Positions 7,089 through 9,084 of a stretch of DNA of 64,000 bases are shown piece after piece. The translations under genes and the position numbers were made by a program. The DNA is from an uncultured bacterium. GTDB taxonomy: Bacteria; Verrucomicrobiota; Verrucomicrobiia; Verrucomicrobiales; DEV007. The notes under the pieces were generated by a model. The model had not been told where the DNA came from and made no database searches. It saw nothing but the letters and a program-made list of their open reading frames with translations. The DNA lies in assembly GCA_963977015.1 (NCBI GenBank), contig CAXBMO010000004.1, positions 389,061 to 453,060 on the forward strand, read 5' to 3'. Position 1 is the stretch's first letter; the number at the start of each line of letters is the position of its first letter.

Positions 7089-7329
7089 CGTTCGGGCAGG
7101 CATCCTGCCATTACCAATTTGTCACCGACAAACGGGTAACCGATTGATCCCCCCCGCACGAACTTTCCTCCAAAACGTCCCTTGACCGTTCCGCCCATCT
7201 CGGATTCTCTATGCGGTATGCAAAGCAGGTTCACGACGGTTTCACCCCATCAGCCCAGCGCCGAATCCCGTGGCAAACTTCCAGACGTTATTTGACACTT
7301 CTGTCACCTGTAAAACGTTATCCCTAAAA

Positions 7330-7926
7330 ATGCTTACCCGGTTCCGCGATAAATATGGCGAGGGCGAAGGTGCCAGCGACGAGCTGAACCCTGCTTTCCT
7401 ATCACCACTTGAGGAACGAGCCATTGGCATCACGGAGCTTCTCAGTTCTTCAGGAGGCGCAACCTTTGCGAATGGTCTTTATCGCCTTCACGGGGCTGGA
7501 GACATCGGGGCTTGGACGAAAAACGTCGAAGCTACGTTCCCTGAGTATGAGGGGGCGTTGGTTTGTTTCGGATATGATTGGCTCGGCCGACACTTCGCTC
7601 TTGATACCACAACGGACAAAGGACAGTGGCAGATTTTACTCATCGAGCCAGGTGCTGGGGAAGCGATGCAGATTCCCAGCTCATTTGCGGATTTCCACAA
7701 CATTGAATTAGTTGAGTATGCTTCAGATGCGCTCGCTGAACCGTTTTTTATAGAGTGGCTTTCTTCGGGTGGCGCATTTCCAAAACCCACAGAGTGTATC
7801 GCTTACAAGACACCACTCTTCCTGAATGGATCAGATACTATTGAGAATTTGGAGGTCTCTGATATGGACGTGTATTGGCATTTGTGCGGTCAACTTCGCC
7901 AATCAATCACAACCGGATTAGGGTAG
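7330..7926 (+). CDS. Tdi1/DUF1851-like toxin immunity protein (gene cassette 1)
   Basis: GLYRLH, FGYDWLGRHF, C-x-AYKTPLFLNGSDTIENLEVSDMDVYW resemble the GAD-like/DUF1851 immunity family; lower GC than flanks. Confidence 0.7.
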   Translation: MLTRFRDKYGEGEGASDELNPAFLSPLEERAIGITELLSSSGGATFANGLYRLHGAGDIGAWTKNVEATFPEYEGALVCFGYDWLGRHFALDTTTDKGQWQILLIEPGAGEAMQIPSSFADFHNIELVEYASDALAEPFFIEWLSSGGAFPKPTECIAYKTPLFLNGSDTIENLEVSDMDVYWHLCGQLRQSITTGLG

Positions 7927-8961
7927 GCCCAGGGTTTGAACCGGTTTGAACCTGCCCTCCACACCACGGGACATGCGGGTCCGCACGCGGCGGTTCCAGT
8001 CAGTCATGCAAGTCCCCGTGGACCAGGCAAGGGCGCCATCTCCATGAACTCTCTTGGATGCTTTGAATTGGTTTTCAGTTTGAGTATCTGACTCGCTTCG
8101 CTCGGCTCTCTGCCCGCAACCCTACTCGGTTTGTGGCTCGCCCAATCGGGTTCAACGCCTTGAGCAGGTGCTCGGGTCGGTTCATCCGATTGGTTCGGTC
8201 CTTCATCGGGTGGATCCTCCGTTGGGCGCAAGCGCCGTCCAGTTCGTTTCCGCCATTTGGTGAGCCCTCCGGTTTCTTAGTTTAAACGGGCGATTCAACA
8301 CCCCCGGCTCGTCTTCCACGACTACTACGACCTCGGCTGACATTTACCTCCGGGACTGAATGAGGGAATTTCGCTGTGTTGTGCTAGCTCGTTCCATCCC
8401 GTCGGTCTCGGATGAGGTTCTTGTTCATCGGCTGATGGCTTTGATGTCGCTTTGGCGCTCCACTCTCCGGGCAGCCCAATGGCTGTCGGTGTCCGCTTCG
8501 CTCCCATTCCCATAACCTGCCTCCCCACATTCGGTTACCCGGCCGCAGTTGGCCTCTGCTAGTTCTTTGCATCCTTCAGATGTTCATTCTATAAACAGGG
8601 GACTTGAACGAATGGCGCAAAGATAAGCGGGGTCATCGATAAACTTAGCCGGGTCTCCACAGGGATTTATTCCCGTGGAACAGAGACCACCCACCAGACC
8701 ATTTCCATCCATACGCTCGCCCCGGCTGGCCTTGCGCCAGTCGAGCGCTGACGCCGTTTGGCACCGTCAAAACCCAGTTCGTGTGGCTGGAAGGAGTCAG
8801 CGCTCCACCGGCATGAAGCCGGTGGGGGCGATGGGTTTCAGGAGGCGGTTCTGGTGGTTGATCGAGCACCCACCGGGGCGAGCCCGGAGGAGAGCTAAGG
8901 TGGTTAACCTTGCGCCATTCGGACTTGAACCCCTTTTGGTTTCAGCCCATGCTGGACGTAC
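7917..8961 (-). mobile_element. ORF-less group IIC intron inserted in an attC site
   Basis: Minus strand: 5' end GTACGTCCAGCATGGG after exon TTGT; GTCAGCCGAGGTCGTAGTAG and GAAGGACCGAAC (DII/DIII landmarks); DV GAACCGCCGCGTGCGGACCCGCATGTCCCGTGGTG with CGC triad; DVI ending CCTACCC. No RT ORF. 3' boundary uncertain (7917-7921). Confidence 0.85.
8610..8920. mobile_element. 311-bp non-autonomous element (MITE, IS4-like ends) nested in the intron
   Basis: Terminal inverted repeats GAATGGCGCAA...TTGCGCCATTC (15/17 when extended); perfect 10-bp direct repeat GGACTTGAAC at 8600-8609 and 8921-8930. Confidence 0.85.
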
Positions 8962-9084
8962 ACAATGCGCCGCACACAGACACGGACCCTGGGGAGTTAT
9001 CAGAAGGCACCTCACTCACAACATTCGTCAGCCTGCTGCGAACTGCTCCCCCTCGGTCCTTACTGGTCAGCGCTGACGTTCTGC
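8962..9084 (+). other. attC site 1 (right part; R'' box split by the intron)
   Basis: ACAATGCGCCGCAC..GGACCCTGGGGAG pairs imperfectly with CTCCCCCTCGGTCC..GGTCAGCGCTGACGTT; R' GTTCTGC at 9078-9084. Confidence 0.75.

Follow-up and report, generated by a model that had tools for sequence, protein, structure and literature searches.

What is the 311-bp segment that interrupts the beginning of a group II intron in an uncultured bacterium of the Verrucomicrobiales (DEV007), and by what route did it arrive there? The locus lies in a 64,000-nucleotide stretch, hereafter the window, of contig CAXBMO010000004.1 (assembly GCA_963977015.1, positions 389,061 to 453,060 of the forward strand), and coordinates without a contig name refer to it. 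An initial annotation, made from the letters alone, had read the locus as a nest of parasites, in which a miniature inverted-repeat transposable element (MITE) of the IS4 family sits in an intron that itself sits in an attC site. Based on comparison with further copies, uninterrupted introns and related genomes, it is very likely that 8610-8920 is a MITE of subgroup IS4, with IS4 ends and a Y1-associated core, inserted in a group II intron that lacks a reverse transcriptase (RT) gene.

The element and its ends are laid out as follows.

8610-8920, plus strand: non-autonomous IS4-family element (MITE), 311 bp, recognized by its terminal inverted repeats (TIRs), duplication, copies and empty sites
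8600-8609, no strand: left copy of the target-site duplication, GGACTTGAAC, from a direct-repeat search
8921-8930, no strand: right copy of the target-site duplication, GGACTTGAAC, from the same search
8610-8626, plus strand: left TIR, GAATGGCGCAAAGATAA, from an inverted-repeat search; fits -AATR--------WTW
8904-8920, minus strand: right TIR, whose reverse complement is GAATGGCGCAAGGTTAA, from the inverted-repeat search and an end alignment

The two copies of GGACTTGAAC form a perfect 10-bp direct repeat (100% identity), and immediately inside the left one GAATGGCGCAA (8610-8620) is the exact reverse complement of 8910-8920 at all 11 positions; the longer arms, 8609-8626 and 8904-8921, are complementary at 16 of 18. 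The window contains 171 pairs of 10-bp direct repeats spaced 100-600 nt apart, just one of which, the element's own, abuts a perfect inverted repeat of at least 9 nt, and the same arrangement appeared in none of 50 first-order Markov simulations of the window. Two open reading frames (ORFs) and no others overlap the insert, one of 133 aa (8675-9076) and one of 74 aa (8645-8869); a Pfam scan, run on the longer alone, gave no match. The predicted RNA fold of the whole insert is a long hairpin (-158 kcal/mol, z = -5.6). By its TIRs, its target duplication, its lack of a transposase, its several copies and its empty sites, 8610-8920 is a MITE, and the initial description of an insert with inverted ends, a 10-bp duplication and no transposase ORF was accurate.

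The host of the element is a minus-strand intron with the following parts.

7917-8961, minus strand: group II intron without an RT gene, about 724 nt once the insert and one repeat copy are subtracted (Rfam, alignment to a paralog on contig C17, junction comparison)
8318-8452, minus strand: match to Rfam RF02001 (group-II-D1D4-3), 38.7 bits against a gathering score of 32
7963-7994, minus strand: domain V-like hairpin with two mispairs relative to paralogs (alignment, folds)

The RF02001 match and the alignment to the intact C17 paralog place the insert inside a group II intron, as had been claimed. This paralog, in the same genome (G000, a metagenome-derived assembly of 51 contigs rated 95% complete), crosses the insertion site uninterrupted with a single GTTCAAGTCC, and the alignment shows a single clean gap, made up of the 311 bases and one copy of the repeat. 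In an intron of a congener, G002:C74, one match corresponds to window 8921-8961 (97.6%) and another to 8507-8609 (90%), with exactly 10 nt shared between them, and the 10-mer GGACTTGAAC is single-copy in both uninterrupted introns. The initial annotation had restored a continuous start of domain I by removing the insert and one repeat on paper; these two introns read through in that form naturally. It had also left its reading dependent on whether the segment has other copies or matching ends and whether intron homologs carry it: copies exist, and two homologs are without the segment.

Comparison of the 311 bp with its own genome, a check that had been proposed, returned five further near-full copies and a set of related TIR-bounded elements. 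The near-full copies other than that of the window are these.

G000:C8:29142-29452: near-full copy
G000:C1:557266-557564: near-full copy
G000:C10:5913-6223: near-full copy
G000:C6:339912-340223: near-full copy
G000:C36:46384-46688 plus G000:C39:1-111: near-full copy across a contig break

These five are 86-94% identical to the window copy. Pairwise identity among all six copies of the 311-bp class is 78-94%, so the element family is not young. Elements of other sizes with the same ends measure 331 bp (C5), 261 and 266 bp in tandem (C6) and 147 bp (C25), and the family, whose related TIR-bounded members thus span 147-331 bp, is present on 8 contigs. All copies are intergenic, most of them directly past the end of a gene. 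Seven of the nine elements tested have similar flanks (10/10, 8/10, 7/10, 8/10, 8/10, 7/10 and 10/11 identical positions). Outside its own genome, the 311-bp sequence was matched in two of three other genomes of the genus and in none of the 57 genomes of other genera that were searched. A tRNA-like target was considered and rejected, with no tRNA at the C25 site and none of 60 predicted tRNAs within 3 kb of a copy.

Some features of the family were observed in passing. In the copy split between C36 and C39, an 11-nt tandem repeat (CCGGAGGAGAG) close to the right arm has expanded, and the assembly breaks there. At G000:C6:269013-269549 (L007 1371-1907), the related 261- and 266-bp elements lie head to tail with different cores and a spacer of exactly 10 bp, and the 10-mers in the three flanking positions resemble one another (GCGTTAAGAG, GGGGTAAGAG, GGGCCAAGAG), as though one target had been hit repeatedly. 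At G000:C8:148835-152772, 25-nt inverted repeats (24/25) stand 3.9 kb apart, and their flanks are inverted too. Finally, at three of nine loci, TIR-bounded members of the family lie in or beside group II intron sequence: the window copy; the C6 tandem pair, directly adjoining an intron fragment that is truncated at its 5' end and 94% identical to C17; and the C8 copy, which lies 50 nt from a 62-nt fragment of an intron protein gene. The association looks enriched, intron DNA making up well under 1% of the genome by a rough estimate rather than a tool count. Its simplest reading is that both kinds of element settle just past gene ends, where insertions are tolerated.

The family to which the element belongs is indicated by a larger partner. 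An end-motif search of three congeners located an insertion sequence (IS) at G002:C172:5565-7108, 1,544 bp long, with identical TIRs (GAATGGCGCGAGTTTAA) and a perfect 10-bp flanking duplication, GGACTAACAG. Of the duplicated 10-mer there are two tandem copies ahead of the left end and a single one behind the right end (L071 1046-1065 and 2610-2619); an earlier event at this site may have left this arrangement. The two halves of the transposase score 76.9 and 138.8 bits with NCBIfam NF033592 ('IS4 family transposase', cut-off 115), the second half also scores 68.6 bits with Pfam DDE_Tnp_1 (PF01609), and the motif YFERWEIEVRFRDIK reads Y-(2)-R-(3)-E-(6)-K. The resemblance to the small elements is not confined to the TIRs: the left arms of the C1 and C10 copies resemble the right end of this IS over about 37 nt, and for C1 a hand count on the alignment gave 30 of 37 positions, well past the TIR.

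Of 61 genomes searched, 26 match the transposase, and homologs from other genera of this bacterial family include uninterrupted frames of about 500 residues. Four relatives with definable ends are 1,558-1,599 bp long and start with GAATGGCAC or GAATGCCAC; the duplications are 10-11 bp in three of them (TGGCTAGTTC, GTGTCGGTTAT, GGGACAGGTCA) and decayed in the fourth. A wider protein search scored 8000 candidates, of which 933 had E<=1e-10; among the 120 homologs listed, the informative names were 'IS4 family transposase [Verrucomicrobiales bacterium]' and 'Transposase DDE domain', and the remainder had no name or 'hypothetical protein'. Non-autonomous derivatives are familiar in the IS4 family, where they include the mobile insertion cassettes (MICs) and MITEs derived from IS231.

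For subgroup IS4, Table 1 of 'IS4 family goes genomic' by De Palmenaer, Siguier and Mahillon (2008, PMC2266710) gives a length of 1,400-1,650 bp, ends of the form -AATR--------WTW, a YREK motif and direct repeats of 10-13 bp. Set beside that table entry, the partner ISs agree in size (1,544-1,599 bp overall), in ends, in the spacing of the YREK residues and in their 10-11-bp repeats, and GAATGGCGCAAAGATAA, GAATGGCGCAAGGTTAA and GAATGGCGCGAGTTTAA all fit the tabulated end consensus. The window element differs in keeping the ends alone, around a core that is a doublet resembling repetitive extragenic palindromic (REP) sequences and is not IS-derived, and the transposase clade itself is uncharacterized. 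By its ends, its partner IS and the length of its duplication, the element belongs to the IS4 family, subgroup IS4, and the family named in the initial annotation is thereby upheld.

The core has another affinity, which involves the following features.

8649-8766, plus strand: core module, forward copy, consisting of GGTCTCCAC, a hairpin, a linker, a second hairpin and GAGCGCTGAC; matches repeats beside IS200-like genes
8789-8896, minus strand: core module, inverted copy; forms a doublet with the forward module that is like a REPIN (a REP doublet forming a hairpin)
G000:C8:157348-158139 (L084 1501-2292), minus strand: IS200-like gene 1, encoding a two-lobed Y1 protein
G000:C1:339118-339908 (L087 977-1767): IS200-like gene 2, encoding a two-lobed Y1 protein

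Element positions of about 40-157 and 180-287 are inverted copies of one module, whose hairpin stems vary between copies with pairing kept. On both strands, the modules match short repeats beside the IS200-like genes on C8 and C1. Single modules in inverted orientation flank these two paralogous genes and their intact congener homologs, so that modules stand on both sides of the Y1 gene in all five close loci examined (L084, L087, L085, L086, L088). With Pfam Y1_Tnp (cut-off 23), the intact congener proteins, 298 and 310 aa long, gave matches of 40.1 and 46.3 bits in two stretches, and they also match 2ec2 and 2f4f, structures of IS200-type transposases. Inspection by eye places the tyrosine helix in the first lobe, which has no HUH, and the HUH motif (PDHVHI) in the second. 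This architecture is widespread, with 619 cluster representatives at E<=0.001, mostly of 255-290 aa. The two own-genome paralogs are identical over about 250 nt around an in-frame TAG that occupies the position of a serine in the congeners.

REP and REPIN sequences are short repeats of 20-40 nt, present in many copies and inserted without target duplication. Compared with those sequences and their associated tyrosine transposases (RAYTs, of Y1 type), the core is likewise an inverted doublet of structured repeats, and single repeats likewise flank, in inverted orientation, a low-copy IS200-like gene. The differences are that the modules measure about 110 nt instead of 20-40 nt and number a few dozen copies at most, that the protein is two-lobed, about 270-300 aa in total, with an HUH-less tyrosine lobe followed by an HUH lobe, and that the window element has IS4 ends and a 10-bp target duplication. 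We infer that only the ends derive from the IS and that the core is a doublet of modules of about 110 nt, which would make the window element a chimera, a REPIN-like doublet inside IS4 ends. The order of assembly could equally have been the reverse, with a small IS4 MITE invaded by the doublet. A more specific proposal, which we put forward tentatively and consider possible rather than probable, is a hybrid parasite: a REPIN-like doublet of the Y1 system that acquired IS4 ends and was then spread by the DDE transposase, with its 10-bp duplications. If this were true, one class of transposase would have hijacked the non-autonomous repeat of another, and the nest would be four layers deep, from attC-like site through group IIC-type intron and IS4 ends to Y1-type repeat.

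Other explanations of the locus have to be weighed against insertion of an IS4-subgroup MITE. The 311 bp might be a native expansion of intron domain I, or a chimera of the assembly, and the assembly, which is metagenome-derived, is indeed interrupted at further copies of the repeat (C36 ends and C39 begins in one). We regard this as extremely improbable. The C17 and G002:C74 introns are without the segment and have the 10-mer once, the same element is present at five unrelated intergenic sites, and contigs from independent public runs (X4 record 28, X1 record 3) cross each filled-site junction with identical sequence, which excludes an assembly artefact. Alternatively, the element might still be active and its insertion recent and polymorphic in the population. 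The initial annotation had indeed taken the perfect duplication (10/10) as a sign of recent insertion and had suggested a search for empty-site alleles, for which we used contigs of four public runs (X1-X4). Joints that skip exactly 321 bases were present in X2 and X3. The loose end of the X2 contig is the flank of the C17 paralog and that of the X3 contig is another flank, with 4 differences in 50 nt; since the loose ends are other flanks, the skipping contigs stem from other, paralogous intron copies and not from empty alleles, and no empty allele of the window locus was shown in the four runs. A perfect 10-bp duplication dates little, the copies have diverged from one another as described, and the assembly has no matching transposase, so that the window copy is probably stranded. 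The claim of recency is therefore unproven, and a still active element with a recent, polymorphic insertion appears very improbable.

The last competitor starts from the core. The element could be a REPIN- or PATE-type repeat (the latter a palindrome-associated transposable element) moved by a genus-specific IS200-like (Y1/HUH) protein, with its TIRs incidental. Homology to the modules flanking the Y1 genes extends over about positions 25-287 of the element, and doublets in tandem adjoin such genes, whose intact congener products match Y1_Tnp. Transposition of the Y1 type (IS200/IS605) makes no target duplication, whereas the 10-bp duplication here is proven by empty sites. Additionally, the doublets adjoining the Y1 genes have no TIRs and are without GAATGGCGC ends, an IS of the IS4 family with a 10-bp duplication of its own has ends that match those of the window element, and both own-genome Y1 genes are interrupted by the in-frame TAG. 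Mobilization by the Y1 protein therefore seems very improbable as an account of this insertion.

Insertion of an IS4-subgroup MITE remains the reading that we hold with considerable confidence, and several observations weigh against it. Two of the nine tested elements have no recognizable duplication (4/10 and 0/10). The IS in G002 is the sole congener copy, and its single transposase reading frame is interrupted by an in-frame TGA. The own assembly yielded no match to the PF01609 profile, and tblastn with the G002 transposase gave noise only (best E 0.51). Scans of the own genome for TIRs with up to 4 mismatches, paired to a distance of 8 kb, returned MITE-sized pairs only and none convincing at 1-8 kb. 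The homology of the core to Y1-tied repeats, together with the lack of duplication in Y1 transposition, makes a second route of mobilization for the core possible. The check for an autonomous IS4 element with the same ends was thus positive in G002 and in other genera and negative in the own assembly. There, the contig ends hold element fragments on C39 and C9 only, and a self-megablast for repeats of at least 400 bp found no IS-like multicopy unit with the same ends; with 51 contigs and 95% completeness, a repeated IS could have been lost from the assembly.

The initial annotation had further supposed that the insert disables the ribozyme, and the state of the intron itself bears on this. The intron begins at window 8961 (minus strand, GTACG), a small correction to that annotation, and the 3' end is ambiguous within 7917-7921 by junction comparison of five copies. 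The C17 paralog matches RF02001, RF00029 and RF01998 with 99.8, 46.4 and 36.2 bits and encodes a 519-residue open frame with an RT domain (RVT_1 match), in which no nuclease motif was noticed by eye, Pfam not having been run on the protein. The window copy, for which RF02001 was the one covariance model to match, has no RT frame; about 235 nt (8107-8341) without a match in C17 replace the RT region. Its domain V, which RF00029 did not detect even at E<=1, has its two mispairs relative to four paralogs and a predicted fold of -15.7 kcal/mol, compared with -21.0 kcal/mol in C17. With or without the insert, a copy that has no RT and a damaged domain V was probably inactive or reliant on a protein supplied in trans, and we regard the intron as a degenerate group IIC-type derivative. 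The insertion site is the loop of a small hairpin (GGGG-UUCAAGU-CCCC) about 40 nt into domain I. The hairpin is kept in diverged introns of the genome (GGGGTTCAAGTCCCC in C17, GGGGTGCAAGTCCCC in C6, GGAGGTTCAAGTCCTCC in C18), which suggests that the loop matters. In the predicted RNA fold, the original GGGG/CCCC stem closes around the insert, which forms a rod of its own. The claim that the insert disables the ribozyme is therefore unproven, and any effect on splicing would be added to defects that do not depend on it.

Two further observations concern introns elsewhere. The segment that replaces the RT region recurs with 85-90% identity in at least 8 places in the congener G001, where it is better conserved than the ribozyme parts, and introns of the RT-less window type have multiplied in that genome. 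Three of these places are as follows.

L100 7563-7799: RT-replacing segment in G001
L100 9876-10113: RT-replacing segment in G001
L100 12814-13036: RT-replacing segment in G001

An intron fragment at G000:C31:26850-26900 ends in three tandem copies of its final 14 nt (CCCTACCCGATTAG).

The outermost layer of the proposed nest, the attC site, involves the two sides of the intron.

7270-7926, plus strand: immunity-type gene (T6SS_Tdi1_C / SMI1_KNR4), Pfam 31.8 bits
8962-9083, plus strand: module of about 122 nt on the 5'-exon side, candidate attC-like site, upstream of the intron on the intron's own strand

According to PMC7923331 and PMC3001079, IIC-attC introns enter the bottom strand of attC at R'', with the consensus TTGT/T, opposite to the cassette gene. 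The window intron lies directly after the gene at 7270-7926 and on the opposite strand. The stop codon of that gene (7924-7926) is inside the 3' end of the intron, and with the intron removed the frame would be longer by 38-42 residues. The 5' exon ends in TTGT in three of the four copies with a 5' junction (window, C6 and C16, not C17). The first 3'-exon base of the window copy depends on the ambiguous intron 3' end, and it is this ambiguity (7917-7921) that decides whether an R''-like GATTAAC stood before the insertion. The 122-nt module recurs on C36 with 75% identity, its ends conserved and its centre variable, right after the stop codon of another gene and without an intron. Neither the module (z -0.1 to -0.85) nor the restored exon junction folds better than shuffled sequences. 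A search for RYYYAAC...GTTRRRY (or AAC...GTT) pairs with a folding filter found none in window 1-25000 or near the C1 integrase, a weak blank in that the search had no positive control. No integron integrase or cassette array was found on the contig of the window, and the only integron integrase (IntI) of the genome is on contig C1, without an adjoining array.

The window intron shares with IIC-attC introns such as S.ma.I2 (PMC3001079, PMC7923331) a position after and opposite to a gene, the TTGT end of the 5' exon, which is the published IBS1, and compactness; the intron-encoded protein of its C17 paralog has an RVT_1 match and no nuclease motif by eye. It differs in that no attC hairpin, array or nearby IntI was demonstrated and in that it is without a gene for an intron-encoded protein. 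The claim that the intron lies in an attC is partly supported: the TTGT end and the opposite orientation agree with it, and no attC-type hairpin, core pair, array or integrase was found on the contig. A separate observation comes from G001:C26 (L100 6400-15100), where small ORFs form a same-strand array, one of them with DUF4241 and a weak Imm-NTF2 match. Immediately after each of three of these ORFs comes an intron remnant that lacks an RT and runs in the opposite direction; the three lie 2.3 and 2.9 kb apart, and the layout is cassette-like.

Reasoning from the chemistry of the IS4 family, a DDE transposase supplied in trans would have bound the TIRs of about 17 bp. The target, the domain I hairpin loop of the minus-strand, RT-less intron, would have been cut with a 10-bp stagger in a cut-and-paste reaction, and repair of the gaps would have duplicated GGACTTGAAC.

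Nested mobile elements are known; examples are twintrons, and IS elements that have entered a group II intron or harbour one. As in those systems, one selfish element has served here as the landing site for another, and what differs is the guest, a MITE lodged in a hairpin loop of domain I. A full-text literature search, judged by title and abstract, found no case of a MITE nested in a group II intron.

In summary, the locus is a clean nesting of mobile elements and not a new kind of element, and the autonomous relatives of its guest are now identified in related genomes. Our understanding of the systems involved is unchanged by what is a well-supported curiosity. It documents an uncharacterized clade of IS4-subgroup insertion sequences, together with their miniature derivatives, in a marine bacterial family. 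It also offers a natural construct with which to ask whether a group IIC-type ribozyme tolerates a 321-nt rod in a conserved loop of domain I. The chimeric core is the most interesting detail, as IS4 ends around a Y1-associated doublet would be a concrete instance, on a small scale, of two transposition systems exchanging parts.

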